DNA of 64,000 nt from Chloroflexota bacterium (GTDB taxonomy: Bacteria; Chloroflexota; Anaerolineae; Anaerolineales; UBA4823), in assembly GCA_029782365.1 (NCBI GenBank), contig JAKOUW010000096.1:298467-362466 (forward strand), written 5' to 3'. The first letter of the stretch is position 1; every line of letters starts with the position of its first letter. This document shows, piece by piece, positions 40,968 through 58,258 of this stretch. Under the pieces are notes generated by a model. That model saw only the letters and a program-made list of their open reading frames with translations. It made no database searches and had not been told where the DNA came from. A program made the position numbers and the translations under genes.

Positions 40968-41963
40968 ATGAAATATCCATATTACCCCGGCTGTTCATTA
41001 GAGAAAAATGCTTCCGCATATCATGTCTCAACATTGCGAGTCGCCAGGGAATTTGGCATTGAATTCTCTGAATTGGATGATTGGAATTGCTGTGGGGCAA
41101 CCGAATATATTTCCCTCAACGAAATGGCGGCTTACTCGCTGGTTGCACGCAACTTGGTTTTGGCCAAAGAGCAGATCAAATCCGGTGGTCACGTGCCGCA
41201 GTTAGTCGCCCCATGCAGCGCCTGCTTCTTGAATCTCAGCAAGGCGGAAGCTTACCTGACAAACAACCCGCCGCTTTCGCAGCGTGTCAACCTGGCATTG
41301 GAAGCTGGCGGTCTGCATTATGATCCAGGTGGATTGGCCGTCCGTCACCTGCTGGATGTTTTCGTCAATGATATCGGTTATGATGCCATTGCCGCCAAAG
41401 TGAAACGACCGCTGAAAAATCTGCGTATCGCGCCTTACTATGGCTGCCTGATCGTCCGACCCCGCTTTCAAGGCGTGTTCGATGATTTTGAATATCCAGA
41501 CACGCTTGACAGGCTGATGGCTTCGCTAGGCGCGGTGGTTGTCGATTATCCACTCAAAGCCCAATGCTGCGGCGGTCATATGACCCAAATAAGCGAAGAC
41601 ACAGCGATGGATATATTGAACCGTTTACTGCGCAGCGCCGCAGAAAAGGAGACAGATGTCATTGTGACATTGTGCCCAATGTGCCAATTAAATCTGGATG
41701 CCTATCAGGACGCGGTTAATCGTTACTATAAGACCAATTATCACATTCCCATTCTGTATTTCACTCAGGTGATGGGCCTTGCTTTGGGGCTGACGCCCGA
41801 GAGCCTTGAAATTGGCAAGGAATTTATTGATGCCCGGCCAGCCTTGTCCAAAATCGATCATGAGGCGGCGCAAGACGACCAGCCCGTCAAACCCAGGCGT
41901 CCCGGAAAAGAAGAATTGCCTATGCCGCGCATGCCCAAACCAGAACTGGCGAAAGAGAGGTAG
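40968..41963 (+). CDS. hdrB: Heterodisulfide reductase subunit B-like (two CCG domains)
   Basis: DWNCCGA and CCGGHM cysteine-rich CCG motifs. Confidence 0.8.
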   Translation: MKYPYYPGCSLEKNASAYHVSTLRVAREFGIEFSELDDWNCCGATEYISLNEMAAYSLVARNLVLAKEQIKSGGHVPQLVAPCSACFLNLSKAEAYLTNNPPLSQRVNLALEAGGLHYDPGGLAVRHLLDVFVNDIGYDAIAAKVKRPLKNLRIAPYYGCLIVRPRFQGVFDDFEYPDTLDRLMASLGAVVVDYPLKAQCCGGHMTQISEDTAMDILNRLLRSAAEKETDVIVTLCPMCQLNLDAYQDAVNRYYKTNYHIPILYFTQVMGLALGLTPESLEIGKEFIDARPALSKIDHEAAQDDQPVKPRRPGKEELPMPRMPKPELAKER

Positions 41964-41965
41964 CG

Positions 41966-43978
41966 ATGGTAACAAGACAGGTCGAGGAACGAATAGGGGT
42001 CTATGTCTGCCACTGCGGTTCAAATATTGCCGCCACGGTGGATGTCGCCGATGTAGCTCTCTGGGCTGAAAATGAGCTGAAATCGCGGGGTGTGGTTGTT
42101 GCGCGTGATTACAAATTTATGTGCTCCAGCCTGGGACAGGAATTGATCCAAAAAGACATTCAAGAGTTGAAACTTACCCGCGTCGTCGTTGCTGCCTGTT
42201 CGCCCCACTTGCATGAACAGACATTTCGCAACGCCTGCAAGAAAGCCGGACTGAATCCCTACCTGTGCGAATTGGTCTCGATCCGTGAACAGGTTTCATG
42301 GGTTCATACAGACCGGACAGCGGCTACGGCGAAAGCAAAAGCGGTGATTTCAGGCGGAGTGGAACGCGTTATTCACAATCAACCGCTCGATCCACTGCGC
42401 GTCAACATCCACCCAGCCACCCTGGTTGTCGGTGGAGGCATTGCAGGTATCCAGGCCGCATTGGAAATTGCTGACGCCGGATTTCCGGTTTATATGGTGG
42501 AGCGTGAGCCTTCCATAGGTGGGCACATGGCGCAGTTTGATAAAACCTTCCCCACCCTTGACTGCTCAGCCTGCATATTGACGCCTAAAATGGTCTCTGC
42601 TGGTACCCATCCCAACATCACCCTCTTGTCGTGGGCTGAAGTGGAGCACGTCGATGGTTATGTAGGCAATTTCAATGTTACTGTGCGTCAAAAACCCCGC
42701 TTTATCAATACCGAACTCTGCACAGGCTGCGGTATTTGCCAGGAAAAATGTCCAAAGAAAGTCATCGATGATATCTTCGAAGCGGGCTTGGGCTATCGCA
42801 AGGCCATTTACACACCTTTTCCCCAGGCGGTGCCCCGCTTCCCTGTGATCGATGTGGAGAATTGTACTTATTTTATCAAAGGCACATGCAAAGCCTGTGA
42901 GAAATTCTGCCCAACCGGGGCAGTGGATTTCAAACAACAAGAAACCCGCGTGAGCTTCGATGTTGGTAACATTATCCTGGCCACCGGTTATGATTTGTTC
43001 GACGCGCGCCGGGTCACCCAATACGGCTATGGCCGTTTCCCCAATGTCTTCACCAGCCTGGAAATTGAGCGCATGTGCAATGCGGCCGGCCCAACCAATG
43101 GAAAAGTGGTATTGCGCGATGGCGTTACCAATCCCCAGGCCGTGGCGATTGTACACTGTGTGGGCAGCCGGGATCGCAATTACAATAATTACTGCTCCGC
43201 CATTTGCTGCATGCAAAGTTTGAAGTTCGCCCACCTGATCCACGAGCGCACCGGCGCTGAAGTTTATAACTTTTACATTGACATGCGCACCCCAGGTAAA
43301 GGATATGAAGAGTTTTACCACCGCTTGCTGGAGGAAGGCGTTCATTTCATCCGTGGTCGTGTCGCTGAGATAAGCCAGACCGCACGCAATGTGCACGAAG
43401 ATGGTAAATTGATCGTTCAGGCCGAAGACACCCTGGTAGGCCGTCAGGAGCGTGTGCCGGTCGATATGGTTATTCTATCTGCCGGCCTTGAGCCTCGGCA
43501 GGATCACAAGGAAGTGGCCCGAATTTTTGGACTTTCCTGCTCCTCGGATGGATGGATGATCGAACGCCATCCTAAGCTGGACCCGGTGGCGACCATGACG
43601 GAGGGCATTTTCATCGCTGGTTGTGTCCAGGGGCCGAAAGATATCCCGGCCAGTGTTGCGCAAGGCGCCGCCGCGGCAGCCCGAGTTTTAGGGAAGATAA
43701 ACCAACGCCAAATTTTCCTCGAACCGTTTAACGCCACGATAGACTCCACCCGTTGTTCAGGCTGCCGCATTTGCAACAATTTGTGCCCCTTCAATGCGAT
43801 TACTTTTGACCAGGAAAAAATGGTCAGCGCAGTCAATCCCGCGCTGTGCCAGGGTTGCGGGACATGTGCGGCCGCCTGCCCGGCTGGTGCGATTTTCGCT
43901 TCTGGTTTCAGCAGCGATCAAATTCTGGCGCAAATTGAAGGTTTGCTCATGGCCAACCTGGCCCCGCTGGCTGGTTGA
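41966..43978 (+). CDS. hdrA: Heterodisulfide reductase subunit A-like (FAD, multiple Fe-S; electron-bifurcating flavoprotein)
   Basis: GGGIAG FAD motif. Several CxxCxxC clusters. N-terminal CHCGSNIA/MvhD-like motif. Confidence 0.8.
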   Translation: MVTRQVEERIGVYVCHCGSNIAATVDVADVALWAENELKSRGVVVARDYKFMCSSLGQELIQKDIQELKLTRVVVAACSPHLHEQTFRNACKKAGLNPYLCELVSIREQVSWVHTDRTAATAKAKAVISGGVERVIHNQPLDPLRVNIHPATLVVGGGIAGIQAALEIADAGFPVYMVEREPSIGGHMAQFDKTFPTLDCSACILTPKMVSAGTHPNITLLSWAEVEHVDGYVGNFNVTVRQKPRFINTELCTGCGICQEKCPKKVIDDIFEAGLGYRKAIYTPFPQAVPRFPVIDVENCTYFIKGTCKACEKFCPTGAVDFKQQETRVSFDVGNIILATGYDLFDARRVTQYGYGRFPNVFTSLEIERMCNAAGPTNGKVVLRDGVTNPQAVAIVHCVGSRDRNYNNYCSAICCMQSLKFAHLIHERTGAEVYNFYIDMRTPGKGYEEFYHRLLEEGVHFIRGRVAEISQTARNVHEDGKLIVQAEDTLVGRQERVPVDMVILSAGLEPRQDHKEVARIFGLSCSSDGWMIERHPKLDPVATMTEGIFIAGCVQGPKDIPASVAQGAAAAARVLGKINQRQIFLEPFNATIDSTRCSGCRICNNLCPFNAITFDQEKMVSAVNPALCQGCGTCAAACPAGAIFASGFSSDQILAQIEGLLMANLAPLAG

Positions 43979-43992
43979 GAAAGGCGGTAAAC

Positions 43993-44478
43993 ATGGACTC
44001 AAAATTTGAACCCGTCATTATTGGTTTCACCTGCAACTGGTGCAGTTACAGGGCTGCTGACATGGCCGGTACAGCGCGCGTGAAATATGCTCCCAATGTG
44101 CGGCTGGTGCGTTTGATGTGCTCCGGCCGTCTGGATCCAACTTTTGTGCTCAAAGCGTTGGCTGGCGGAGCTGACGGCGTTTTGATAACCGGCTGTCATC
44201 CAGGCGAATGCCACTATTTGGAACAAAACTACAAAGCCCTCCGCCGCTTTCATCTTCTCCGCCGCACTATCCAGGCGTTTGGGGTAGAACCAGACCGTGT
44301 CCGCCTGGTGTGGGCCAGCGCCGCTGAAGGGGTGAGGCTCGCTGAAGAAATTACACGCTTTGTTGAGGACATCCGCGCCCTCGGCCCATTGAACTGGCCC
44401 TCTCATTTGAAGACCACACCTTTGGATCTTTCTGCTCTGGAAAAAGCCGAATTGCCGCTCGAGGAGGTGCCGGTATGA
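43993..44478 (+). CDS. mvhD: MvhD/FlpD-type hydrogenase iron-sulfur (delta) subunit
   Basis: FTCNWCSYRAADMAG and ITGCHPGECHY motifs. Confidence 0.8.
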   Translation: MDSKFEPVIIGFTCNWCSYRAADMAGTARVKYAPNVRLVRLMCSGRLDPTFVLKALAGGADGVLITGCHPGECHYLEQNYKALRRFHLLRRTIQAFGVEPDRVRLVWASAAEGVRLAEEITRFVEDIRALGPLNWPSHLKTTPLDLSALEKAELPLEEVPV

Positions 44479-45464
44479 CTCTCAATGGTAAACCAAAATT
44501 CGCAATGTACTGGTCAGCTTCTTGCGGAGGCTGTGAGATTGCATTGCTGAACATCCACGAAAAAATCCTGGATGTGGATGCCAATTTCCAGGTTGTGTTT
44601 TGGCCTGTGGCCATGGACGCCAAGTACAAAGATGTCGAAGCCATGCCAGATGGTTCGATTTTGTTGACTCTTTTCAACGGCGCCATTCGCAACGAAGAAA
44701 ATGAACACATGGCGCACCTGCTGCGGCGCAAATCGAAAATTCTAGTTGCTTTCGGCTCGTGCGCCAATGAAGGTTGTATGCCAGCACTGGCGAACTTATC
44801 TCCAATTGAGGAAGTTTATCACACAGCGTATTCAACCCCATCCACAGATCCTGCGTTGGGCGGTCTGCCTCGTTCGGATTATTCCGCTCCCGAAGGCGAT
44901 CTTCATATACCGCGCCTCTTTCCTTACGTGCGCACGCTCGATCAGGTTGTAGATGTCGATTATTTCATCCCCGGCTGTCCGCCAGAATCACATCAGATAG
45001 CCGCGGTGATCGACGCCATCATCGCCGTTCTCAAAGGTAGTGCTGAGCTGCCTCCCGCAGGTTCAACCCTCGGGGCAGGCAGCTCTACAGTGTGTGAGGA
45101 ATGCCCTCGCAAGCGCGATGTCAAAGCCATTCACGAATTCAAACGTCTGCAGGAAGTCATGTTGGATCCAGCGGTTTGTATCCTGGAACAAGGCGTTGTC
45201 TGTTCTGGTCCTGCGACCCGCAGCGGCTGCAGCGCAGTCTGCCCAAAAGCCGGCTCCCCCTGCATCGGCTGTTATGGTCCGGCGGAAGGTGTGATCGACT
45301 ACGGAGCGCGCTTGATCACCTCGCTGGCCTCCGTGATAGAGGCAAACCAACCTGAAGAGATTGAGCAGATTATTGATGGAATTCCAGATCCGGCCGGTTC
45401 ATTCTACCGTTTTAACCTGGCCAGTTCTCTGCTGAAAGCTGCCCGGCCTGCAGTGAAAGGATGA
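44475..45464 (+). CDS. mvhG: [NiFe]-hydrogenase small subunit (group 3c, MvhG-like)
   Basis: N-terminal SASCGGCEIALL proximal-cluster motif. C-terminal Fe-S cysteines. GGAGG RBS. Confidence 0.8.
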   Translation: MTLNGKPKFAMYWSASCGGCEIALLNIHEKILDVDANFQVVFWPVAMDAKYKDVEAMPDGSILLTLFNGAIRNEENEHMAHLLRRKSKILVAFGSCANEGCMPALANLSPIEEVYHTAYSTPSTDPALGGLPRSDYSAPEGDLHIPRLFPYVRTLDQVVDVDYFIPGCPPESHQIAAVIDAIIAVLKGSAELPPAGSTLGAGSSTVCEECPRKRDVKAIHEFKRLQEVMLDPAVCILEQGVVCSGPATRSGCSAVCPKAGSPCIGCYGPAEGVIDYGARLITSLASVIEANQPEEIEQIIDGIPDPAGSFYRFNLASSLLKAARPAVKG

Positions 45465-46936
45465 GATCTATGCAGCGCATCACAATTGACCCAATTACCC
45501 GCCTCGAAGGCCATGGCAAGATCGAAATCTTTCTCGACCCGGAAGGAAATGTGGCGAACACGTACTTCCAAATACCGGAACTGCGCGGCTTCGAGCGTTT
45601 TTGCGTTGGTCGGCCAGTTGAAGAAGTGCCGATCTTAACAAACCGGATATGCGGTGTCTGCCCTGAAGCCCACCATCTGGCTGGCGCAAAAGCGGCAGAC
45701 GCAGTCTACCACGTCGATCCGCCCCGCACGGCAAAACTGCTGCGCGAATTAATGTACAGCGCCTTTTACTTCACCGACCATACCACTCACTTTTACGCCC
45801 TCGCCGGCCCTGATTTTGTCATGGGGCCGGATGCGCCTGTTGATCAGCGCAATATCCTTGGGGTGATTCATAAAGTAGGGCTCGAAATTGGCGCCCAGGT
45901 AATCCAGGCACGCAAGTATGGTCATCGCACGGTGGAAATCATCGGAGGGCGGAAAGTCCATCCATGCACTTCTATTCCTGGCGGTTTGACCAAAGGCATC
46001 ACATCAGATGAACGGCGCGAGATTGCCGGTATGGGACAATGGGCAGTCAATTTTGCCCGCTTCAGCCTCAACCTCTTCACAGACATCGTTCTTGGGAATC
46101 CTGATTACGTCAACTTGATCCTCGGTGATATCTACACGCATCACACCTACTATATGGGCACAGTTGACGATAACATGCACGTCAATTTTTATGATGGTCG
46201 CATAAGCGTCGTCGATCCAAACGGCAGACGAGTCGCCCTTTACAACCCCGCAGATTATTTGGACTACATTGCTGAGCATGTGGAACCCTGGACTTACTTG
46301 AAGTTCCCCTATCTTAAGAAGATCGGTTGGAAAGGGCTTGTGGATGGCGTGGATTCAGGTGTGTATGTCGCAAGCCCACTGTCGCGTTTGAATGCCTCCG
46401 AAGGGATGGCGACGCCTTTAGCGCAAGCAGAATATGAACGTTTCTATGCCACCCTGGGTGGTAAACCCGTTCATCAGCGCCTGGCAACGCACTGGGCGCG
46501 TCTGATCGAGCTGCTTTATGCTGCCGAGCGCTGGGTCGAGTTAGCCGCTGATCCAGAGATTATTAGTGACAATTTTCGCACTCTGCCCACCGAAAAACCC
46601 ACCGAAGGTGTGGGCTGCGTCGAAGCGCCGCGCGGCACCCTGACGCACCATTATTGGACAGATGAGAGAGGCATCACCACCCGAGTGAACCTGATCGTTG
46701 GCACCACCAATAATTATGCGCCGATTGCGATGTCCGTTCAGAAAGCGGCTTCCAGCCTGATCAAGAGAGGGACACCCATCACCGAAGGCTTGTTGAACCG
46801 GGTCGAGATGGCCTTCCGCGCTTATGATCCATGTTTTGGCTGTGCCACCCACACCCTGCCCGGGCAAATGCCGCTGGAAGTCACCATATACAACGCATCT
46901 GGTGATGCTCTGCAAGTGCTCAAACAATGCTGCTGA
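45461..46936 (+). CDS. mvhA: [NiFe]-hydrogenase large subunit (MvhA-like)
   Basis: N-terminal RLEGHG...RICGVCP. C-terminal DPCFGCATH Ni-binding motif with cysteine, not selenocysteine. Alternative ATG at 45470. Confidence 0.85.
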   Translation: MRSMQRITIDPITRLEGHGKIEIFLDPEGNVANTYFQIPELRGFERFCVGRPVEEVPILTNRICGVCPEAHHLAGAKAADAVYHVDPPRTAKLLRELMYSAFYFTDHTTHFYALAGPDFVMGPDAPVDQRNILGVIHKVGLEIGAQVIQARKYGHRTVEIIGGRKVHPCTSIPGGLTKGITSDERREIAGMGQWAVNFARFSLNLFTDIVLGNPDYVNLILGDIYTHHTYYMGTVDDNMHVNFYDGRISVVDPNGRRVALYNPADYLDYIAEHVEPWTYLKFPYLKKIGWKGLVDGVDSGVYVASPLSRLNASEGMATPLAQAEYERFYATLGGKPVHQRLATHWARLIELLYAAERWVELAADPEIISDNFRTLPTEKPTEGVGCVEAPRGTLTHHYWTDERGITTRVNLIVGTTNNYAPIAMSVQKAASSLIKRGTPITEGLLNRVEMAFRAYDPCFGCATHTLPGQMPLEVTIYNASGDALQVLKQCC

Positions 46937-47472
46937 AAACCTTGGTGCTTGGGCTCGGCAATCCAATCTTAGGCGATGATGGCGTTGGCTGGCGGGTTGT
47001 CGAAGCCTGCCAAAAAGCATTTTCAACCTCCGCCTCTGCGAGTGATGCCGATTCTTCCTCAAGCGCCCTCATTTTTCCTGACCAGGCGGTCGAATTCGAC
47101 TGTCTTGGAAGTGGTGGCCTCAGCCTGATGGAGCGTCTGATCGGCTATGATCGTGCGATTTTGGTGGATGCTATGCAGACAGGAAGCACTGATCCAGGCA
47201 GCGTTTGCTGCTGTGAGTTGTCCGATCTCGCCGACCCTCACCTCGGTCATTCAGCCTCGCCGCATGATGCCACTTTAAAAACAGCGATTGCCCTCGGGCG
47301 CAGCCTTGGCGCCAGCCTGCCAAGTCCTATCTGGGTTGTGACAATTGAAGCTCGGGAGGTGTTTGAATTCACTCCCGAGCTTTCGCCATTGGTTGCGCAG
47401 GCGGTTAAACCGGCTGTGCAGCAGGTGCGCGCGTTACTCATTTCCCTTTATTCACCGACCCCAGGCCGCTGA
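46927..47472 (+). CDS. Hydrogenase maturation endopeptidase (HycI/HyaD family)
   Basis: LVLGLGNPILGDDGVGWRV motif. Overlaps the large subunit stop. Confidence 0.8.
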   Translation: MLLKTLVLGLGNPILGDDGVGWRVVEACQKAFSTSASASDADSSSSALIFPDQAVEFDCLGSGGLSLMERLIGYDRAILVDAMQTGSTDPGSVCCCELSDLADPHLGHSASPHDATLKTAIALGRSLGASLPSPIWVVTIEAREVFEFTPELSPLVAQAVKPAVQQVRALLISLYSPTPGR

Positions 47473-48385
47473 CCGTCTTTGTCAGGTTCGGTTCCCCGTA
47501 ATAGGTGATTGAACCGACGCCGCTGATCTGTGCATTCAAGCTGTTTTTCACCTGGACCTGTGCGCTGCCGGTACCACTGACCTGGGCATCTGCTGTCTGG
47601 GTGGCCAGGTCTCTCCCGAGGAAACTGCCCGCTCCGCTGATTTTCACAACCAGGTCATTTGCGCTGCCGTTGGTGGTTACATTGCCAACGCCGCTCAATT
47701 GACATTCGAGCTTATCGGTTTTCAGATTCTCCAGGCGCAGACTGCCAGCTCCACTCACGTTCAATTCGAGTGCGTCCGTTTCCAGGTTTTCAAACCGCGC
47801 ATCAGCCGAACTCGAGAAACTGGCTTGATGCAACCGGGTGACTGTGATGGTAATCTTAACTGTCTGGCTTGGTCGGACGCGTTTGCTGCGGTTGGATTCG
47901 CTGTTTTCAATGACAAGTGAGCCACTGCGCACCTCGGTGCTGAGCTGGGGTATCAAATTGTCATCACCGACAATGGTCAGGCTTTCGCTGGTTCCCTGGC
48001 GGACAACAACCTCTGCAGGATATTCCACATCCAGAGCATCAAAACCGCTGATCGACCGGGTGACTGTGATGATATTTTTGGAGCCAGGCACCGCACCATC
48101 ATAACCACCGATATTAAAATTCCACTGTGGAGTATTCCATCCCAACTGCGGGGCGAATAGTATCGAGGCAATTACCAACAGAGCTGCGGCTGCCTGGCCA
48201 ATATTTCGGGATGGTTCCCAAACGCTTTTTGCGATCAAGCTCAGGCCTGCCAGAATCAACAAATATGGCCAGACGTGAGTGAGCGCCCAAAAGTTTTCGC
48301 CTGGCATATATCCAAGGGAAACAAGCAGCCACAATAAACCAACAACAATTAGAAAGAGAGGAAAAAAAAGGGATCGCTGTCTCAT
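47438..48385 (-). CDS. Membrane protein with DUF4097/DUF2807-like beta-helical repeats (LiaF-like/adhesin-head fold)
   Basis: Two N-terminal TM helices. Repeated xSGxGSxxV/L beta-strand units. ATG 48385 with GGAG RBS. Confidence 0.6.
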   Translation of the reverse strand: MRQRSLFFPLFLIVVGLLWLLVSLGYMPGENFWALTHVWPYLLILAGLSLIAKSVWEPSRNIGQAAAALLVIASILFAPQLGWNTPQWNFNIGGYDGAVPGSKNIITVTRSISGFDALDVEYPAEVVVRQGTSESLTIVGDDNLIPQLSTEVRSGSLVIENSESNRSKRVRPSQTVKITITVTRLHQASFSSSADARFENLETDALELNVSGAGSLRLENLKTDKLECQLSGVGNVTTNGSANDLVVKISGAGSFLGRDLATQTADAQVSGTGSAQVQVKNSLNAQISGVGSITYYGEPNLTKTVSGLGSVNKGK

Positions 48386-48565
48386 ATCAAACTCCAATCA
48401 AAGTAGTGTTTATTGAATTTACGTTCTTGCAGCCCAGCGGTTGCAGTACTATTGAATAAGCCAATCGTACCCATTTGCAGCTCTGTCAGCATCTGCCAAA
48501 CAGTCAGTTTTTCCCTGGCTATCTGGATAGGGTTTGCCCTTTAACTGTCGTAGGGCAATCGTTGC

Positions 48566-48594
48566 TTGCAAATTTCCTTTTTCTTCGCTAAAAT
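48566..48594 (+). promoter_or_regulatory. Sigma70-like promoter (TTGCAA-17-TAAAAT) for the SARP regulator gene
   Basis: Hexamers and 17-nt spacer read from sequence. Confidence 0.5.
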
Positions 48595-48683
48595 ATAATT
48601 AAGATATTTATACTCCGGTTAATGATCGCTTTGAGCGTCATTCCCAGCCAACGCAGGTGATGGCTGGACGAGGTTTTCAAATT

Positions 48684-49583
48684 ATGAATAAGCTCCGCAT
48701 TGTTTTGTTTGGAGGGGGACGAGTCGAATTTGCCGAGTCACAAAAGTACGAAGCGCTCACTACGACGACATGCGCCTTATTGGCTTTCCTGGTTTTTTAC
48801 CGCCAACGCACTCATCCACGGGAGGTTTTGTTAAATCTACTATGGGGTGAGCTGCCACCTGAACGTGCGCGCGGCTGTCTCAACACTGCTCTCTGGAGGC
48901 TGCGCCAGCGCATCGAACCCTTCGGAACTCCCTCAGGTACTTACCTGGTGACGAGTTCTTCAGGGGATGTTTGTTTTAACTGCCAGAGCGATTTCTGGTT
49001 GGACGTGGCGGCTTTCGAGAAGTCGGTCGAATCAGCCCTGGCTGTTTCACATGACCAAACTGATAATCAAGCTGCCCAACTGGAACAGGCAATCTCCTTA
49101 TACACCGGTGATTTATTGGAAAATAGTTACTGTGATTGGGTTTTACCTGAACGGGAACGTTTGCGCAATTTATGCCTTGATGCCCATGAATATTTGATGC
49201 ACCATTATCACACCCGCCTCAATTTCCACCGTGCTCTAGACCATGGCGCCCAAATCCTGGCTTTTAATCCCCTACGAGAAGATATCCACCGCCAGATGAT
49301 GCGAATCTATGTGGATAATGGTCAGCGCTCATTGGCTGTGCGCCAATATCAGATTTGCCAGCAAGTCCTCCACACCGAGTTAAATATCGAACCGATGCTC
49401 GAAACTCGCTTGTTATTGGAACAAGTCTCTGGAAGTTCTCTGATTTCTGAAAAATTCCCCATATCCGATCAGGTCACCAGTGAAGTGAAACAAGCCATGG
49501 AACGCCTCCAACTAGCTCTCGATGTTGTCAACCAGGCCCGCCAGGATCTTGAACGAGCTCTCAATCGCATTTCGAAAACCTGA
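48684..49583 (+). CDS. SARP/BTAD-family transcriptional activator (AfsR/DnrI/RedD-like). Alternative start at 48657.
   Basis: N-terminal OmpR-type winged helix (RIVLFGGGRVEF...LLAFLVFYRQ). C-terminal BTAD TPR-like domain. Confidence 0.75.
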   Translation: MNKLRIVLFGGGRVEFAESQKYEALTTTTCALLAFLVFYRQRTHPREVLLNLLWGELPPERARGCLNTALWRLRQRIEPFGTPSGTYLVTSSSGDVCFNCQSDFWLDVAAFEKSVESALAVSHDQTDNQAAQLEQAISLYTGDLLENSYCDWVLPERERLRNLCLDAHEYLMHHYHTRLNFHRALDHGAQILAFNPLREDIHRQMMRIYVDNGQRSLAVRQYQICQQVLHTELNIEPMLETRLLLEQVSGSSLISEKFPISDQVTSEVKQAMERLQLALDVVNQARQDLERALNRISKT

Positions 49584-49697
49584 TCAACTTCTGCCAGAAT
49601 GAGATTTTTCTGCCTTTTTCTCCAGCAGATCTATTGACGCGTCTGGAACAATCAAATTTCATCAAATTAAGGTATTTATTATCTTATTCTAATTAGT

Positions 49698-49752
49698 TGT
49701 GATCGAGGGGTGATTTTGCGGTGATCCCCCGGTGATTTGGTCATGGTATAAG
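49698..49752 (+). promoter_or_regulatory. Putative SARP-dependent promoter of the eCIS operon. Four direct GTGAT[C/T] repeats with exact 11-nt period. The last heptamer lies 8 nt from a TATAAG -10.
   Basis: tGTGATCgagg gGTGATTttgc gGTGATCcccc gGTGATTtggtcatgg TATAAG, read directly. Confidence 0.5.
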
Positions 49753-49819
49753 CAAATAGGAAGATTTCTTCCAACTGGCTACCGCTTTTACTTTCTCAAG
49801 GAGCATCCAGCCGATCAGA

Positions 49820-50041
49820 ATGCCAGGATTCAACACCCAGTCTTTCCTCGTTCGCATCTGGATCGAGCCGCGAGAAATTCAAGGGATGTCCATAGTTTGG
49901 CGGGGTATGGTGCAGATGGTATCCAGTGGTGAACAAATCTACTTCAAATCCTTTGCCGAGTTGAATATGTTCATCGCCGCAAAATTATCTATCCCCTACC
50001 CGCCAGAAAACGATGGCGTTATCCCTGGGAAGGAATCATAA
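49820..50041 (+). CDS. Possible small leader ORF (73 aa) ending 3 nt before the DUF4255 gene. Start uncertain.
   Basis: ORF tightly abutting the first eCIS gene. No domain recognised. No well-spaced RBS. Confidence 0.25.
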   Translation: MPGFNTQSFLVRIWIEPREIQGMSIVWRGMVQMVSSGEQIYFKSFAELNMFIAAKLSIPYPPENDGVIPGKES

Positions 50042-50043
50042 GT

Positions 50044-50640
50044 ATGGCTTTTTATACTGCCATAGCCGCAGTTGGTACCGCGATCGTCAATTTACTAAAA
50101 GATGCTTCACGCACAGAGTTTCCCCAGGCTGATTTCAAACTTCTTCAGGCATCTGACTTCACCCTCAACTCAGCTATACCTTCCCCTGAAGGCGCCAGTG
50201 TGTTTTTATACCGGGTGACTGTTTCCACCCAGCGCCGCAACATGCCTCCTCGCACAGACGAAATAGGCGTGCGCTTTCGTCCATCCCTGCCAGTGGACCT
50301 CTATTTCTTGATAACCCCCTGGGCTGCCGATCCTGAAAAACAGCTCCGCCTTCTTGGATGGATTATGCGCGTTATTGAAGACGCCTCGATCATCCCTTCC
50401 GCCTTATTGAATGAGCTTGAGCAAAATGGCAAAATCTTTTCCTCAGCCGAGAATATTGAGCTGTTCTATGAACCGCTCAATATGGCTGATATGTCAATCC
50501 TGTGGGAGAACTTGAAACAGGTAAAACTGGCGCCATCTGTGACCTATGTTGCTCGCATGGTGTTATTAGACTCGTCCTCACTGCTCAAAGTGTATGATCC
50601 GGTCCAGGCTCGCGATGTCCCCTTCCAGGAGATGAATTGA
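50044..50640 (+). CDS. DUF4255 protein (eCIS cap / tail terminator, Afp16/Pvc16-like)
   Basis: VFLYRV...VDLYFLITPWAADPEKQLRLLGWIMRVI matches DUF4255 hallmark motifs (SLFLY..., LYLITAW...DP). Confidence 0.8.
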   Translation: MAFYTAIAAVGTAIVNLLKDASRTEFPQADFKLLQASDFTLNSAIPSPEGASVFLYRVTVSTQRRNMPPRTDEIGVRFRPSLPVDLYFLITPWAADPEKQLRLLGWIMRVIEDASIIPSALLNELEQNGKIFSSAENIELFYEPLNMADMSILWENLKQVKLAPSVTYVARMVLLDSSSLLKVYDPVQARDVPFQEMN

Positions 50641-51497
50641 TGACTGAACCGTTGATCTTCGAACATCTAACGCGTGTCGCTCCATTGGGCTTACGTTTTT
50701 GGGATAGCGCATCCGGGCAGTTCATCTCAGATGGGCTCTTCGTCCAGGCAGTACCCAAGTTGCCATCTGGCGTTTACTTAGGTGCTCCTGTCCAGGCCAA
50801 CGCAAACCGCTCTGGTGTGTTTGTATTCAACCACATGCCAGGTTTGCAGGTCAGCGAGTTCGGCTCTGGCGACCAGGAATATTGGCAAACACCTCCCGCC
50901 AAAAAAGATTACACCATAACCGTATTGGACACACTCTTCAGGTTCCTGCCCTTTACGTTTGATGTTCAGGCGCCTGCTAAGAAAATCCTGGCCTTTGCTT
51001 GTTCAAATGGCAAACCCACACCTCTGCCGGACAAACAACCTTCTGGCAGTATTCCGTTGTATTCTGCGCCTGGGCGGTCTGTGCCAGGGGGCTGCGCAGT
51101 CATCCGGGCCTCCCTGGCGCGCAACCCTTTAAATCCCCTGCCGGCTGCCTGGGCTGTCGTAGAAGCCTATGTGGAAGGAGCCCTGGTTTGCCGCGGCCTT
51201 TCAGACGCCAAAGGCCAACTGGCCCTTTACTTTCCTTACCCCAAATTTGTACTGCCGAACCCGATGAGTAACCGTCCGCCGCTCACTCAGGCGACATGGC
51301 CAGTGGATATCCTGGTATTCTCGAGTCTGAGCCCACCATCGAGCAGCCCGCAAAACCTGTGTACGTTGTATGCACAGCCAGCCGCCAACCCGCTCAGGCA
51401 AGTCTCACCGGATCTGCCTTTACAGAAGCAAAACCTGGCCTACGGCCTGGAACTGGTAATCCAAACCCAGGACAAATCCGAATTATTCATTAGCTAA
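50637..51497 (+). CDS. Hypothetical protein within the eCIS operon (Pro/Ala-rich)
   Basis: ATGA overlap with the cap gene. No recognised domain. Confidence 0.55.
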   Translation: MMTEPLIFEHLTRVAPLGLRFWDSASGQFISDGLFVQAVPKLPSGVYLGAPVQANANRSGVFVFNHMPGLQVSEFGSGDQEYWQTPPAKKDYTITVLDTLFRFLPFTFDVQAPAKKILAFACSNGKPTPLPDKQPSGSIPLYSAPGRSVPGGCAVIRASLARNPLNPLPAAWAVVEAYVEGALVCRGLSDAKGQLALYFPYPKFVLPNPMSNRPPLTQATWPVDILVFSSLSPPSSSPQNLCTLYAQPAANPLRQVSPDLPLQKQNLAYGLELVIQTQDKSELFIS

Positions 51498-51514
51498 TCG
51501 ATCTGGAGGTTCAA

Positions 51515-53377
51515 ATGCCCGAATATTTATCCCCCGGTGTATACGTCGAAGAGGTTTCCTTCCGGAGTAAATCCATTGAAGGCGTCAGCACCACCACAAC
51601 TGGTTTTGTCGGTCCAGCCAGATTCGGCCCGGTCGACATCCTCCCAGATATCCTCACTAGCCTGGGAGATTTTGAGCGCACCTACGGCGACGGCCAACAA
51701 CTCACATTTGGCACTGGCACAGTCGTTGATAATTTCCTTTGGCATGCGGTGCGCGCCTTTTTCGAGGAAGGCGGAAAGAGGCTGTACATCTCACGCATCT
51801 TCAAGGTGAAATCCGGCGATACTGCCAATGGCATCGCCAGCGCCAAGGTGCCGTCTGCCGGGACAGATGCGCAAAAAATCGTCATGACTGCGCGTTTTCC
51901 TGGCTCGGGCGGCAATGTCCGTGTGAAATATTCGTTAAAGATCGGCCAAAACATCCTCACCAGTGCCGGGTTGAAATCTGTTGGTGATGGCGACATGGTT
52001 TGGGTTGGCAAAGGCAATGCCGGTAATCCACCTACCACTGGTGATTTCGAGAAGATTGTTTTCGACACAGTATCCCAAACTTATAAAATAAAAACATTTG
52101 CAGGCGCTGACACAACAGTTTCTTTCGCGTCCAAAGATGAAGTGCGCATTGTGACATTGACGGTTACCGTCACGCTGACTGATAATACACAGCTTGTTTT
52201 TGCTGGCCTGGCATGCGAGCCATCTCATAACAAAGGCGGGCAGGGTGATTCGCTCACTGCATATTTTGCTTCAATTCCGGCCAATGCATCACTGGCTCGC
52301 ACCTTGCCCCTGGTGATCACTGCCGGCACATCGTTGACCAACGGATTGTTAATAGCACAAGCCCTGTTCAGCGCAACCAGCGTGATAACAAGTAACGCCG
52401 CCATCCCAATCCCCGCAAATTTCACCTACGACTCAGCTGAAACGCTCCTTTCCGGCGGGAACGACGGCGACCGGCCAACCTCCACAGAATATGTTGGCAC
52501 AGCTAACGATACCACCGCCACCAAAACTGGCTTGAAAGCCTTCGAGGACCTGGAAGATATTTCCATTGTTGCTGCTCCAGGTTCAACCTTTGGCTATGAC
52601 AGCGGGGCAACCCAGCAAGCTGATTCAACTGCGACCATCAACGCGTTGATCACCCATACAACCAATATGCGTTACCGCATCGCAGTACTCGATAGTGGCA
52701 ATGGTCAGGCTGTCGCCGCTGTGCGTGCCATGCGCGCTCAATTCGACTCAAAATATGCCGCACTATACTATCCCTGGGTGCGTGTTCTAGATCCGATCAC
52801 GCGCAAAGAAATCTATTTACCTCCCAGCGGCTTTGTTGCAGGCATTTATGCTCGCAACGACATCGAGCGGGGGGTGATCAAAGCGCCGGCCAATGAAGTC
52901 GTTAATACCGCCCTAGGTTTCGAAGTCAATCTGAACAAAGGCCAGCAGGATGTGCTGAACCCCGAAGGCATAAACTGTTTCCGCTTCTTCGAGGGGCGCG
53001 GCAACCGCCTGTGGGGTGCTCGTACTATTTCATCCGATCCCGAATGGAAATACGTAAACCTGCGCCGTTACTTCGCCTACATCGAGCGTTCTATCGACCG
53101 GGGGACCCAGTGGGCGGTTTTCGAACCGAATGGCGAACAGCTCTGGGCAAATGTGCGCTCCACTATCTATGATTTCTTATTCAACGAATGGCAAAAAGGC
53201 GCTTTGTTGGGTGATAAACCTGAAAAAGCATTCTTCGTACGCTGCGACCGCTCGACCATGACCCAAAACGATCTTGACAATGGTCGCCTGGTTTGCCTGG
53301 TGGGTATTGCCCCGCTGAAACCAGCCGAATTCGTCATCTTCAAAATTGGCCAGTGGACAGCCGATTCTAAGGTTTAG
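51515..53377 (+). CDS. Contractile tail sheath protein (Afp2/3-like)
   Basis: N-terminal YLSPGVYVEEV...TGFVGPA. C-terminal sheath domain (IKAPANEV...NCFRFFEGRGNRLWGARTIS). GGAGG RBS. Confidence 0.9.
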   Translation: MPEYLSPGVYVEEVSFRSKSIEGVSTTTTGFVGPARFGPVDILPDILTSLGDFERTYGDGQQLTFGTGTVVDNFLWHAVRAFFEEGGKRLYISRIFKVKSGDTANGIASAKVPSAGTDAQKIVMTARFPGSGGNVRVKYSLKIGQNILTSAGLKSVGDGDMVWVGKGNAGNPPTTGDFEKIVFDTVSQTYKIKTFAGADTTVSFASKDEVRIVTLTVTVTLTDNTQLVFAGLACEPSHNKGGQGDSLTAYFASIPANASLARTLPLVITAGTSLTNGLLIAQALFSATSVITSNAAIPIPANFTYDSAETLLSGGNDGDRPTSTEYVGTANDTTATKTGLKAFEDLEDISIVAAPGSTFGYDSGATQQADSTATINALITHTTNMRYRIAVLDSGNGQAVAAVRAMRAQFDSKYAALYYPWVRVLDPITRKEIYLPPSGFVAGIYARNDIERGVIKAPANEVVNTALGFEVNLNKGQQDVLNPEGINCFRFFEGRGNRLWGARTISSDPEWKYVNLRRYFAYIERSIDRGTQWAVFEPNGEQLWANVRSTIYDFLFNEWQKGALLGDKPEKAFFVRCDRSTMTQNDLDNGRLVCLVGIAPLKPAEFVIFKIGQWTADSKV

Positions 53378-53387
53378 GAGGTAAATC

Positions 53388-53840
53388 ATGGCAGTCTTGC
53401 GTGACCGTCCGTATGTTCAATTCAATTTTCTGGTGGATTTAGGCACCGGAAATACCGAAGGGCCCCAAGCTGGTTTTCAAGAGCTTTCTGGGGTTGGCAT
53501 GGAAGTTACAGTTTCAGAATACCGCCCTGGAAATTCGCGTGAAAATAGTGTGATGAAAATTACAGGCCTTAATAAAGCCAGCGACGTGACTCTGAAACGC
53601 GGTGTAATTGGCTCGTTAGATTTGTATGCCTGGTTGGACCAGATTCGTAACGGCGACCAATCAGCCCTGCGCACGGTGACGATCAAATTGATGAGCGAAG
53701 ATCATACCAGCGTAGTCCAGACCTGGAAACTGCTGCGCGCCCGCATTACAAAACACACCAGCGGCCCATTTAACGCCAAGGGCACCGATGTAGCCATGGA
53801 GGAATTGGTGCTGGCTTACGAGAGGTTGGAGATGGAGTAG
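53388..53840 (+). CDS. Tail tube protein (T4 gp19 / Afp1-like)
   Basis: 150 aa. VQFNFLVDLG tube-family N-terminus. AGGAGG RBS. Confidence 0.85.
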   Translation: MAVLRDRPYVQFNFLVDLGTGNTEGPQAGFQELSGVGMEVTVSEYRPGNSRENSVMKITGLNKASDVTLKRGVIGSLDLYAWLDQIRNGDQSALRTVTIKLMSEDHTSVVQTWKLLRARITKHTSGPFNAKGTDVAMEELVLAYERLEME

Positions 53841-53843
53841 CAG

Positions 53844-56800
53844 ATGCCGGGTTTATCGAGCGCCGAAAACAGCTTGCAGTACCTGCCTGGGGGCGTCTCG
53901 CGCCTGCCTGGTATCCGTTTTGAGACGGTGCCTGCTCGTCAGCCGGCTGTTTTGCCACGCATGGATATCCCGGTGTTCGTGGGGTTTGCAGGGCGCGGCC
54001 CGCTCCATATTCCTGTCCCGCTCAAGGATTCGGCTGAGTTCAGCGAGATATTCGGCCCAGACCAGCCGCTCGCCTGGGACACTCAACGCGGTCGCCAGGA
54101 GTATGCCTATCTTGGACCAAGTGTGCGCTCTTTTTTCCAGAACGGTGGCGTGCGCTGTTGGGTGGTGCGTGTCGCGGACGAGTATAAAGCACATACAGCC
54201 TTCTATCCACTGCCAGGCCTGGCTGTCTTCGATGGCGCCGCTCTCTCCCCGGCTTTTGCCCCGGCGCGCTCCCCTGGTTCTTGGGGGGAAGCCCTGCAGG
54301 TCAGCACAGCGCTCGCCAGCCAGTCATTATCGCTGACAACTTTCAACCATAACCAGGCGAAAATCGATCTGACTCTCCCCAGCCCAGGTTTTGTAATCGT
54401 CGGGGATCTGCTCCGCTTGAACTATGATCAGGATGGCTGGTTTGCGCTTTTTCCAGTCAATTCGATTGAACGGCAAGCCATCGAAAAAGCCCCCAGCCTC
54501 GATCAGGCCCGCGCAGTCACACTGACCGCCAACCAGGTATTTTGGTTTCGCCCTGCGGAAGCGCGCAAACCCGCATCCTTGAAGGCCACCATGAAGGTCT
54601 ATACGCAAAACGCTCCCATCGCTGCCTTACAGGTTACCATTCCGCAGGGTTTTTGGCCCACAGACCCGAGTTCTGCTGCCGCTTTTGACTACGCTGGTGT
54701 GCTCGACCCGGCTGTTCTCGCTGCTTCCGACCAGGGCTCTTTGCTTCAATTCTCTTTCGCCGATCACTCGATCTTCTGGATGCTGGTTTCAAGCCAGGCC
54801 GCCAATGACACACAACCCAGCCTGCCCGGCGTTGGCGAATTCGAGCGCTTCAGCGGCTACGGCGTCTGGCAAATGCCTTCACCCCCCGACCTGGCTGCAT
54901 TTAAAAACCAGTTTCCGCGGCTCGAAAAATTGACATTCGACCTCGCCGTGCGATCTGCCAATTTCGCCCCTCAACGGCTAAAAGACCTCGCCTTTGGCTC
55001 GGAACATCCGCAGTATTGGGCCGCCCTGCCCAATGACCAGGATCTTTTCACCACGCACGCTCACCTGACAACCAGCGATGCTTCGTACCCTGACTTGCTG
55101 ACGAACCCCGCCTTCCTGACAAGCGCTGCCACCACAGCCATCGATCCACATGCCGCGCTATGGCAATCGGCTGCCAGCCCTCGTTTTCCCCTGGCAGGCA
55201 GCCGCGCCGGCCTGCTCTTCTTACCTTTGTTAATCCCAGCGTTCCCCACATTTTTTGCCAACCCCAGCGAACCAGCCGGCGATGCCTTAACACGCGACGG
55301 CCTGGATTCTTTTGACGCCAGCCTGTTTCTGGATTCCGCCCTGGCTGGTCAAACCAACGCCGCGCTCCTGGATATCGCCGATAGCTTGCGCTACTTGCAA
55401 GCCAATCCTCGGCCTTTGCGCGGTATTTTCGCCGCTCTTTCTGTCAGCGAAGCCACCGTTGTCTGCGTGCCGGATGCAGTTCACAACCGCTGGGAGAAGG
55501 GTTTGCTCGATCCAATGCCCCCACCTCAGCCATCTCCCCCGCCAGAAAGGCCGGTCTGGTGGCGTTTCTTGCCGTGCAATCCGCGCCCCCACTCCTTCCC
55601 CCGCACCAGCCAGCCAGAATGGGGCCAGTTTTTACGCTGCGGTTTGCGGATTATACCCGCTCCGGTGCTATCCATAACCCAGCCAGACCAATCCGGCACG
55701 TTTACCCTGTCTTGGACGAAAGTGGTTGATGTGGACCGCTATGTAGTGGATGAATCGCCTTATCCAGATTTTCGTTCATTTCACACAATTTATGATGGCC
55801 CAGACACAGGCCTGACATTGTTTGGCTATATCGAGGGTGATTATTATTTCCGCCTGCGCGCAGAGGCAGATGCTAAACCGGATGGCTTGGTAGAGACCAG
55901 CGATTACTCAAATTCTGTTGGCTTGCGGATTTCTCCTGACGCTTCTTTCTTGCTCTGGGAAGATAATCTCTACACCCCAAACACCCTGCTGGCTGTTCAT
56001 CGCTGCCTCTTGCGCCTATGTTCTGCGCGTGGCGATCTTTTTGCCTTGCTCAGTCTGCCTCGTCACTTCCGCTCTGCACCAGCCATCGCCTGCTCTCAGG
56101 CCCTGCGTTCACCCCTGGACCAGATCCTTACGGTGAATATTCCAAACATCGAGATGTCCGGTTCGTTGTCAGCCGTTGATATTTTGCCGATCTCTTACGG
56201 TGAAGCTGGCTGCCTGGCTTTTGGCGCCCTTTACCATCCCTGGGTGGTAACCATCGATGGACAGTCTCAAGAGGTGCGCATAATTCCACCAGATGGACCG
56301 GCAGCAGGGGTGCTTGCCCACCGCAGTTTGCAGCGCGGCGCATGGATTGCCCCAGCCAACGAGAAATTGCATGGTGTGGTTGGTTTACAACCGGTTATCT
56401 CTGCAGATGATTGGCTTGACATCCAAGAGGCGCACATAAACCTCTTTCGTGATGAAGCCCAGGGTTACCTCTCACTCTCTGCCAATACGCTCAGCGCGGA
56501 TCCGGATTGGATCCTAATCAACGTGCGGCGCCTGATCTCCTTGCTCCGCAGACTGGCGCTGCGCTATGGCCCAAATTATGTATTCGAGCCGAACAGCCCT
56601 GCATTTCGGCGCACCGTCCAGCGTGAGTTTAGCGCCATAATGGGGTTGATGCTCGCTCGCGGCGCTTTTGCCGGCGACACGCCGGAGACTTCCTTTCAGG
56701 TCAATGTCAGCGCCCTGCCGCAAGATATCGACGCCGGCCGACTGGTGATCGAGCTGCGCGTTGCCCCTTCTGTTCCTATGCGGTTTATTCTGGTGCGCCT

Positions 56801-56867
56801 CGTGCAGTCTGGCGACCAGAGTGCGATCACCGAAGCCAGCGCAGTGCTCGGCGCAGCGGGAGGTTGA
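53844..56867 (+). CDS. Large tail sheath paralog (Afp4-like) with internal FN3-like and proline-rich insertions
   Basis: N-terminus (LPGGVSRLPGIRFETVP...DIPVFVGFAGRGP) and C-terminus (IAPANEKLHGVVG...INLFRDEAQGYLSLSANTLSADPDWILINVRRLISLLRRLA) parallel the upstream sheath protein. The middle contains FTLSWTKVVDVDRYVVDESPYPDFRSFHTIYDGPDTG...YYFRLRA (FN3-like). Confidence 0.75.
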   Translation: MPGLSSAENSLQYLPGGVSRLPGIRFETVPARQPAVLPRMDIPVFVGFAGRGPLHIPVPLKDSAEFSEIFGPDQPLAWDTQRGRQEYAYLGPSVRSFFQNGGVRCWVVRVADEYKAHTAFYPLPGLAVFDGAALSPAFAPARSPGSWGEALQVSTALASQSLSLTTFNHNQAKIDLTLPSPGFVIVGDLLRLNYDQDGWFALFPVNSIERQAIEKAPSLDQARAVTLTANQVFWFRPAEARKPASLKATMKVYTQNAPIAALQVTIPQGFWPTDPSSAAAFDYAGVLDPAVLAASDQGSLLQFSFADHSIFWMLVSSQAANDTQPSLPGVGEFERFSGYGVWQMPSPPDLAAFKNQFPRLEKLTFDLAVRSANFAPQRLKDLAFGSEHPQYWAALPNDQDLFTTHAHLTTSDASYPDLLTNPAFLTSAATTAIDPHAALWQSAASPRFPLAGSRAGLLFLPLLIPAFPTFFANPSEPAGDALTRDGLDSFDASLFLDSALAGQTNAALLDIADSLRYLQANPRPLRGIFAALSVSEATVVCVPDAVHNRWEKGLLDPMPPPQPSPPPERPVWWRFLPCNPRPHSFPRTSQPEWGQFLRCGLRIIPAPVLSITQPDQSGTFTLSWTKVVDVDRYVVDESPYPDFRSFHTIYDGPDTGLTLFGYIEGDYYFRLRAEADAKPDGLVETSDYSNSVGLRISPDASFLLWEDNLYTPNTLLAVHRCLLRLCSARGDLFALLSLPRHFRSAPAIACSQALRSPLDQILTVNIPNIEMSGSLSAVDILPISYGEAGCLAFGALYHPWVVTIDGQSQEVRIIPPDGPAAGVLAHRSLQRGAWIAPANEKLHGVVGLQPVISADDWLDIQEAHINLFRDEAQGYLSLSANTLSADPDWILINVRRLISLLRRLALRYGPNYVFEPNSPAFRRTVQREFSAIMGLMLARGAFAGDTPETSFQVNVSALPQDIDAGRLVIELRVAPSVPMRFILVRLVQSGDQSAITEASAVLGAAGG

Positions 56868-56871
56868 GGCA

Positions 56872-57339
56872 GTGACAGATTTTGGTTATCCATTCACCAA
56901 TTTCAACTTTTCCGTGGAAATCTCCGTCCCCGGTCTAAAAGGCTTGCTGTGCAAAGCATCTTTCTCCGACTGTGATGGCCTGGAAATGAGCATGGACGTC
57001 AAAACCATCCGCGAAGGCGGCAACAACAATCACCAATTGCGTTTCAGCGGCCCCACGAATTTTGCCACCCTCACTTTGAAGCGCGGTATGACCACCGACG
57101 ATTTTGATCTCTGGAAATGGTTTTCCAGCGTGCAGTCCGATCCTTCGCTGCGCGCTTCCGCTGAAGTGGTGATTTTTGCCGCCGACGGAGCTACTGAGCG
57201 CGCCCGTTTTATCCTGGAGCGCTGTTTACCAGTGAAACTGAAAGCCCCGACTTTAAATGGTAAGGACGCGGCAGTCGCTATTGAAGAGCTGCAAATTGCC
57301 TACGAAGGATTGAGCATCAAACCCGGAGGTACAGGATGA
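56872..57339 (+). CDS. Second tail tube protein (Afp5-like), GTG start
   Basis: FTNFNFSVEISVPG tube motif. GGGAGG RBS 8 nt upstream of GTG 56872. The longer ORF from 56761 overlaps the preceding gene. Confidence 0.8.
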   Translation: MTDFGYPFTNFNFSVEISVPGLKGLLCKASFSDCDGLEMSMDVKTIREGGNNNHQLRFSGPTNFATLTLKRGMTTDDFDLWKWFSSVQSDPSLRASAEVVIFAADGATERARFILERCLPVKLKAPTLNGKDAAVAIEELQIAYEGLSIKPGGTG

Positions 57340-58073
57340 CAACCGCCGCCAAACTTGAAAAAGCCAGGTTGATCGAGATGGAGGCTGATTTTGCCAATCC
57401 TAAGAGTGGCGGCAAGACAACCATCGTGCAGTTCAACCCCGAATCCCTCAAAGTGACCTTTGCCAACCAGCTTGTTCAGCCGGGCAACGGTGGAGCCAAC
57501 GGTACGGGCGACCAGAGCAACCAGGCCGGGCGGCAGTTCGTCGGCGCAGGTACAACCAAGCTGGCCCTCCAATTATGGTTTGATGTTGGTTCGCAAGATG
57601 CAGACAGCGGGGACCGCAAAGCGGACGTGCGTGACTTAACGAAGGATGTAGCCTTCTTTATCACACCCAAGCAAGAAGGTTCAAATTACCTGCCGCCAGC
57701 CGTGCGATTTTCATGGGGCTCATTTCATTTCGATGGGTACTTCGACTCCCTCGAGGAAAACCTGGATTTCTTTTCCACCGATGGCATTCCTCTGCGCGCC
57801 AGCATGAGCGTGAATATGAGCCAACAAAAAATTCAAGAATTCAGCGGCAGCGGCGGCTCGCTCAATGCGCCGCCAGGAGCACCCGGTTTTTCCAAAGGTG
57901 GGCTGGGCACATCTCCATTGGCCGCCGCTCGTTCTGGCGCTTCACTGCAGAGCATGGTGTCGGCTGGACAGGATTGGAAAAGTATTGCCTCCGCCAACAA
58001 TATAGAAAATCCACGTTCTTTAGATCCCGGCCAGTGGATTAATCTCAATCTTCGCTCTGGCTCGAGCGGATAA
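57336..58073 (+). CDS. Tube-initiator/baseplate protein with C-terminal LysM domain (Afp7/Pvc7-like)
   Basis: Tube-like N-domain (TTIVQFNPESLKVTF...LALQLWFD). C-terminal LysM (DWKSIASANNIENPRSLDPGQWINL). ATGA coupling to tube gene. GGAGG RBS. Confidence 0.8.
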   Translation: MTTAAKLEKARLIEMEADFANPKSGGKTTIVQFNPESLKVTFANQLVQPGNGGANGTGDQSNQAGRQFVGAGTTKLALQLWFDVGSQDADSGDRKADVRDLTKDVAFFITPKQEGSNYLPPAVRFSWGSFHFDGYFDSLEENLDFFSTDGIPLRASMSVNMSQQKIQEFSGSGGSLNAPPGAPGFSKGGLGTSPLAAARSGASLQSMVSAGQDWKSIASANNIENPRSLDPGQWINLNLRSGSSG

Positions 58074-58083
58074 AGGAAAAATT

Positions 58084-58251: not shown

Positions 58252-58258
58252 GGAATTT

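Follow-up and report, generated by a model that had tools for sequence, protein, structure and literature searches.

We analysed a 64-kb stretch of DNA from a probable Chloroflexota host (the window, to which all coordinates refer) in which the gene for a small regulator of the Streptomyces antibiotic regulatory protein (SARP) family lies upstream of the structural genes of an extracellular contractile injection system (eCIS). Between the two is an array of four GTGAT direct repeats, which is very probably the operator of the adjacent SARP and the element that drives a transcript leading through the gene of a 73-residue protein (small73) into the eCIS. An earlier note on this DNA had proposed a SARP-driven promoter for a contractile injection system, and the proposal is supported computationally by the geometry of the repeats, the conservation of the array, its change of strand where the target genes change strand, and its covariation with the recognition helix of the regulator. 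The comparative evidence for this reading is strong. The predicted promoter consists of the following elements.

49699-49742, plus strand: four 11-bp direct-repeat units, the predicted SARP operator, with GTGAT at 49699-49703, 49710-49714, 49721-49725 and 49732-49736; array kept in 52/77 homologous loci.
49744-49752, plus strand: extended -10 element TGgTATAAG, hexamer at 49747-49752; offset kept in 30/52 comparator arrays, and TG.TA.A invariant in an alignment with four relatives.
49758-49759, plus strand: predicted transcription start, a purine 6-7 nt past the -10 element, placed from the position of the -10.

The plus strand at 49690-49760 reads ttGTGATCgaggGGTGATTttgcGGTGATCccccGGTGATTtggtcaTGgTATAAGc and contains the box GTGAT(C/T) four times, starting at 49699, 49710, 49721 and 49732 with a period of exactly 11 bp. 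Between the last heptamer, GTGATTT, whose final base is 49738, and the hexamer TATAAG lie 8 nt (49739-49746); counted otherwise, the hexamer begins 15 nt past the start of the last box, and the last 11-bp unit ends 4 bp short of it. A TG at 49744-49745 makes this an extended -10, and no -35 hexamer is present at the promoter. The four repeats, their exact period and the 8-nt distance to TATAAG had all been described in the earlier note and are confirmed, as is the agreement with SARP-activated promoters: the published rule asks for direct repeats at a spacing of 11 or 22 bp, the 3' one lying 8 bp from the -10 (PMC10936776), which is what we find. The note had also suggested looking for the motif elsewhere, and within the window, on both strands, the four-box pattern is unique, with no match in 100 dinucleotide-preserving shuffles. 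The two-box pattern occurs three times, always within the array (0.16 expected), and the four isolated GTGA-N7-GTGA pairs found elsewhere in the window equal the chance expectation. Tandem Repeats Finder did not call the array, because only the box (5-6 of each 11 bases) repeats and the spacer does not, and an Rfam search gave no matches.

A profile search with the regulator against species-representative genomes yielded 80 comparator loci, with protein identities of 37-50%, from Chloroflexota (several classes), Desulfobacterota, Gemmatimonadota, Acidobacteriota, Acidimicrobiia, Alpha- and Gammaproteobacteria, and Binatia; the loci with a SARP homologue span at least six phyla, including Actinomycetota and Proteobacteria. 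Scanning both strands of these loci and the window (1.11 Mb in total) for three or more copies of GTGA at a fixed period returned 59 arrays at period 11, 34 of them with at least four copies, compared with 0-1 arrays at periods of 8, 9, 10, 12, 13 and 22 and five at period 14. Nearly all period-11 arrays lie just 3' of the SARP gene and on its strand, about 0-300 nt past the stop codon, and essentially nowhere else in 1.1 Mb of flanking sequence. When the best four-box match downstream of the SARP stop was scored (maximum 16, threshold at least 14), 53 of 78 loci including the window passed with the 4xGTGA pattern, 30 of them with perfect arrays, as against 6 of 2474 control windows drawn at random from those loci (0.24%), and no other period scored above 13/16. 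The window left aside, a 4x(GTGA-N7) array follows the SARP stop in 52 of 77 comparator loci. Aligned on the first box, the positions between boxes carry almost no information and the remaining intergenic sequence is not conserved; as the spacers are nearly devoid of information, the conservation of the array does not come from recent common descent.

The -10 element provides independent evidence for a promoter, because it was not used in picking the arrays. Across the 52 comparator arrays a TAnaaT hexamer stands out at +48 to +53 from the first box (T in 40, A in 43, A in 34, A in 28 and T in 34), and TAnnnT begins exactly 15 nt past where the last box starts in 30 of them, any other offset accounting for four at most. 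The four cases of TAnnnT at +37 are three-box variants in which the -10 keeps its distance from the last box. A TG precedes the hexamer in 21 of the 52 arrays, and the best -35 match is at most 3/6 in 48. We also aligned the intergenic region of the window with its counterparts from four relatives, of which two are closer (57% and 64% protein identity) and two more distant; the columns without variation cluster in the four boxes and in TG.TA.A.

We further find that the array goes together with the genes that it would control, and faces them. A small73 homologue lies downstream of 43 of the 52 arrays, at a median of 88 nt past the last box; eCIS markers are detectable by tblastn in the loci of 27, and one or both of these follow 47. 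In three loci where the eCIS is divergent and lies upstream of the SARP gene (L048, L073 and L053), an array of matching architecture is found on the opposite strand, facing the eCIS genes.

The regulator itself is encoded immediately before the array.

48684-49583, plus strand: small SARP regulator gene, 299 aa, recognised by Pfam, phmmer, AlphaFold2, Foldseek and heptad conservation.

The open reading frame (ORF) extends over 48657-49583 (308 aa from a GTG at 48657), and the likely start is the ATG at 48684, since the homologues begin with MxxLRI. That the gene encodes a BTAD/SARP-family regulator, as the earlier note had it, is borne out at several levels. Pfam finds BTAD (PF03704) with an E value of 1.3e-24 at residues 115-256 of the 308-aa frame, together with an OmpR-type Trans_reg_C match that falls slightly under the gathering score (25.1 against 26.2 bits), and phmmer aligns residues 30-240 to the SARP domain of AfsR (8hvr, E = 9.5e-9) and to EmbR. 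An AlphaFold2 model built with 37 homologues as input (predicted local distance difference test score, pLDDT, of 90.5) consists of a winged helix at residues 4-106 (a sheet, three helices and a wing), an all-helical domain at 107-248, a disordered linker and a long helix at 262-298. With this model as query, Foldseek ranks the AfsR initiation complexes 8k60 and 8hvr first (E ~1e-11, template modelling (TM) score of 0.81 on the target) and EmbR next. There is no Pfam match to a Response_reg (receiver) domain, and the DNA-binding domain is itself N-terminal. The hydrophobic heptad pattern of the C-terminal helix is conserved in 37/37 homologues, and we know of no description of such a helix in classical small SARPs. 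The NCBIfam models of AfsR (43 bits, cut-off 1430) and BagI/FevR (29 bits, cut-off 500) give scores so low that the protein is a distant SARP and not an orthologue of a named one.

An N-terminal winged helix, a BTAD domain directly after it and base-contacting Thr and Arg residues define a SARP, and the regulator has all of these. An actinomycete host and control of secondary metabolism are absent, the closest homologues being in Chloroflexota metagenome-assembled genomes and the neighbouring genes being eCIS parts; this part of the definition reflects a historical name rather than a mechanism. By sequence and predicted fold, then, the 299-aa protein is a true small SARP.

In Streptomyces coelicolor, AfsR acts at the afsS promoter (the afs box) by sigma adaptation, as seen by cryo-electron microscopy (8hvr, 8k60 and 8jke; PMC10936776, PMC11301090). 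There a pair of adjacent protomers occupies two 11-bp repeats, which overlap both the -35 element and the spacer, and holds sigma region 4; in the recognition helix, T88 and R92 contact bases (PMC10936776). A gap-free alignment places these residues at T68 and R72 of the window regulator; the 37 homologues all have T68, and at least 90% of them have R72. Lys occurs at position 72 in 4 of 120 homologues, within the helix SLNTALWKLK, and we examined every such locus with readable DNA along with two genome loci that have an identical helix. In all of these (L005, L017, L203 and L204) TTGA boxes replace GTGA while the layout of four 11-bp units, 4 bp and TAnAGT is maintained; the array of L204 has three TTGA boxes and one GTGA box. 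A further regulator with Gln at this position (L030) is accompanied by three TTGA boxes. Proteins with R72 have GTGA boxes, with one mixed case (L004). The loss of Arg together with the loss of G is, in these sequences, the direction that direct readout predicts.

In the mechanism that we infer from these features, SARP protomers would respond to an inducing signal and bind side by side, one per 11-bp unit, on the four GTGAT(C/T) boxes at 49699-49742. By analogy with AfsR, boxes 3 and 4 would be the activating pair: they would span about -38 to -17 for a start at 49758/49759 and fill the place of the missing -35 element and spacer. Boxes 1 and 2, further upstream, would add cooperativity as a second pair, with the conserved C-terminal heptad helix as a possible link. 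The resulting transcript would encode the 73-aa protein first and then the eCIS cap, sheath, tube and baseplate. The imperfect -10 and the lack of a -35 fit dependence on an activator.

Among the alternatives, the one that survives best is that the SARP does bind the boxes, and in doing so represses or insulates, by occluding RNA polymerase or as a roadblock to read-through from its own gene, for example, so that eCIS transcription would need its removal. The proximal boxes overlap the core promoter region, and about 12 comparator loci have a terminator-like hairpin directly next to the -10, which suggests that control of read-through matters at this junction. Repression is nonetheless improbable: the BTAD/SARP proteins characterised to date are activators (PMC10936776), the distance from box to -10 is exactly that of activating SARP sites, and the combination of no usable -35 with the imperfect -10 of the window is typical of activator-dependent promoters.

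It is more improbable still that the boxes are the operator of another OmpR/PhoB-type response regulator encoded elsewhere, with the SARP present by coincidence or acting on other targets. Pho-box-like sites consist of 11-bp direct repeats in place of a -35, a grammar common to the OmpR/PhoB superfamily; the DNA-binding domain of a SARP has the OmpR/PhoB fold, and the regulator shows a weak match to PhoB. Yet the array accompanies the SARP gene, and essentially that gene only, through loci of at least six phyla, and the box sequence shifts together with the SARP recognition helix. That the repeat arose by chance or is neutral, for which one may cite the 5-6 bases repeating out of each 11, the silence of Tandem Repeats Finder and the frequency of bare 4xGTGA matches in huge metagenome collections, is effectively refuted by the absence of such arrays from the shuffles, their restriction to period 11, their excess over the control windows and the -10 at a fixed offset, since box sequence, phase and -10 distance are kept across phyla while the spacers drift.

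Several observations count against a SARP operator that activates small73 and the eCIS. A regular array is missing from 25 of the 77 homologous loci, some of which have eCIS genes (the Chloroflexia clade L068 and L071-L076), and the TATAAG of the window lacks the usually critical final T. A reverse search of metagenomes with the bare 4xGTGA pattern gave mostly unrelated chance or tandem-repeat matches, and the bare pattern is for that reason not diagnostic in very large data. The covariation may rest on perhaps two independent events, as the K72/TTGA proteins share the helix SLNTALWKLK and may form one clade. Finally, there are four boxes here as opposed to two in the AfsR structure, so that both the stoichiometry and the function given to the distal pair in our model are guesses.

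Compared with AfsR and afsS, the window shares the SARP-domain fold, the conserved base-contacting Thr and Arg, and 11-bp direct repeats that replace the -35, with the last unit ending 4 bp and the heptamer 8 bp before the -10. It also shares a small-protein gene directly 3' of the regulator and preceded by the box (63 aa for afsS, 73 aa for small73), a likeness of size and position. The differences are that the window protein has just a 37-residue C-terminal helix after BTAD; that the boxes number four (three in some relatives) instead of two and read GTGAT instead of the afs-box sequence; and that the host is a probable Chloroflexota rather than an actinomycete, with an eCIS rather than antibiotic regulators as cargo.

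The small pathway-specific SARPs of actinomycetes include ActII-ORF4, DnrI and RedD. The window regulator resembles them in its size, in the succession of winged helix and BTAD and in the position of its gene beside the cluster that it would control, and the heptamer repeats are likewise near the -10 and all on a single helical face (rule in PMC10936776). Sequence similarity to them is low, however, and the window protein has the extra conserved heptad helix, a predicted target that is a phage-tail-like nanomachine instead of a biosynthetic cluster, and relatives spread over many non-actinobacterial phyla. From the sequence and the modelled fold, the regulator qualifies structurally as a SARP, and the promoter conforms to the SARP promoter rule; the three or four boxes, the C-terminal heptad helix and a small-protein first target recalling afsR-afsS are specific to this subfamily.

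PhoB, too, binds as tandem protomers to 11-bp direct repeats that substitute for the -35, and has a winged-helix DNA-binding domain in common with the window regulator. Unlike PhoB, the window protein has an N-terminal winged helix followed by BTAD and no receiver domain, and is on these grounds not a two-component response regulator.

A link between BTAD and eCIS is already published. Geller et al. (2021) reported BTAD (PF03704) as a recurrent "shell" domain in eCIS loci and drew adjacent GerE or BTAD genes as regulators (PMC8213781), and a 2026 review that cites them repeats the BTAD/GerE-eCIS link. Set beside the eCIS regulators of Geller et al. (GerE/LuxR, RfaH-type and BTAD), the window is one such BTAD locus. 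Neither in these two papers nor in the other literature that we searched did we find a binding site for such regulators, the architecture of their promoters or a partner gene; the present analysis is the source of the operator with its geometry, of small73 as partner and of the covariation between helix and boxes.

Downstream of the promoter lie the predicted target genes.

49820-50041, plus strand: small73, a 73-aa ORF and the first gene past the promoter; homologue after 43/52 comparator arrays.
50044-62470, plus strand: eCIS structural genes, identified by Pfam matches.

The earlier note placed the SARP gene directly upstream of the eCIS. The SARP and the promoter do precede the eCIS; the immediate adjacency does not stand, as small73, which the note had missed, intervenes. 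The stop of small73 and the Pvc16_N gene downstream are 3 nt apart. Small73 matches no family in Pfam or NCBIfam, and there is no significant fold match in the PDB, yet the family is large, with 930 cluster representatives at E <= 1e-3, and has the invariant residues F9, W14, E16, W27, R28 and G29. The AlphaFold2 model (pLDDT 77) is a three-stranded sheet with a helix. Small73 adjoins the SARP gene even at loci with divergent eCIS genes, recalling the arrangement of afsR and afsS.

The eCIS genes are ordered as the Pvc16_N cap (50044-50640), a 286-aa protein of unknown function, the sheath (51515-53377), the tube (53388-53840), a 1007-aa sheath-like protein, two further tube proteins, a gpD-like hub, the spike (Phage_base_V), a 670-aa unknown and gp25 (62081-62470). 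The families matched are Pvc16_N, Phage_sheath_1 and 1C, Phage_T4_gp19 (twice), CIS_tube, Phage_GPD, Phage_base_V and GPW_gp25, and the sheath, tube, gp25-like wedge, spike and Pvc16/Afp16-type cap that define an eCIS are all present in one operon-like cluster. A further large ORF runs past the end of the window at 64000 (translation of 62467-64000). There are two sheath-like proteins (51515-53377 and 53844-56867), the second of which, at 1007 aa, is unusually long and has only a recognisable C-terminal sheath domain, and three proteins of the tube family (53388-53840, 56761-57339 and 57336-58073).

One feature concerns the SARP gene's own expression.

48566-48594, plus strand: TTGCAA-17-TAAAAT, proposed promoter of the SARP gene; present, at chance level.

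The sequence is there as the earlier note had stated, and its role as a promoter is plausible and not supported beyond chance, with two matches found against 2.4 expected from shuffles. Further upstream, a LiaF-like DUF2807 membrane protein gene (47438-48397, minus strand) is divergent from the SARP gene, and a heterodisulfide-reductase/Mvh-type NiFe hydrogenase cluster occupies 40968-47472 on the plus strand, with a CCG domain protein, an HdrA-like protein, FlpD/MvhD, small and large hydrogenase subunits and a HycI protease.

Hairpins recur on both sides of the array. A terminator hairpin between the SARP gene and the array is clear in three of the four aligned relatives, and intrinsic terminators such as CCGCCTTCGGGCGGTTTTTT are seen between the SARP stop and the array in L001 (~8930-8960), L002 (~8925-8950) and L201 (~3940-3975). 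At the corresponding place after its SARP gene, the window has a weak 5-bp stem followed by CCTTTTT (~49590-49615). Past the -10 hexamer, beginning at the very next base, about 12 comparator loci have a perfect hairpin of 9-10 bp followed by a T-run, as in TAGAAT-GCTGCCACC-acatt-GGTGGCAGC-ATTTTTT; among them are L008, L009, L012, L018, L024, L033, L035, L043, L047 and L069 (~0-30 nt past the -10). The arms vary between loci and their complementarity is kept. Such a hairpin could stop transcripts that read through from the SARP gene and let pass those begun within its 5' arm. Directly after its -10 the window has a weak hairpin without a T-run (GGAAGA-tt-TCTTCC, 49759-49772).

The module also varies in its boxes and cargo. 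Three-box variants occur in L053, L057 and L061 on both strands (three GTGA boxes, 4 bp, then TAGAAT or TAGACT), and separate arrays at these loci face small73 and the divergent operon. A Chloroflexia/Thermomicrobia clade (L068, L071-L076 and L080, at ~8340-9100) has SARP-small73-eCIS loci with no regular array; these carry CGTGATTGTTGTGACACCGCCGTGTTCG, with box spacings of 9 and 11 bp followed by a TCGAAT-like hexamer, and their recognition helices read HSFNTALWRLR or HCLNTALWRLN. At other loci (L040, L044, L056, L023; L038, L052; L020; L031; L004) the SARP and GTGA array stand before other cargo, in which no eCIS can be recognised, for example a transglutaminase-like protein accompanied by several unknowns, a subtilase with a Tlde1 domain, a papain-family protease, a sigma-54 activator and a phospholipase C-like protein.

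A wider picture is conceivable, and we put it forward tentatively, as somewhat doubtful: the SARP, the 4x(G/T)TGA-N7 promoter and small73 might form a portable cassette that spread with eCIS across phyla, sometimes before toxin-like or protease cargo, and acts as a master on-switch of nanomachines that are otherwise silent. Small73 would then be an AfsS-like second-tier or feedback regulator and not a structural protein, and the code linking residue 72 to box position 1 would be reprogrammable.

To our knowledge, most eCIS loci are silent in the laboratory and almost nothing is known about their regulation. A predicted operator and promoter conserved across phyla therefore offers a direct experimental handle on eCIS regulation: if the reading is true, expression of the cognate SARP should turn on the eCIS operon, and the box motif could be used to predict regulon members in genomes. 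The analysis also flags a large uncharacterised family of small proteins as the predicted first target of the regulator. The kind of result is not surprising; it would nonetheless be the first concrete, testable regulatory code for a widespread group of eCIS, and, if true, the activation mechanism of the Streptomyces SARPs serves far beyond the actinomycetes and on a target that is not metabolic.

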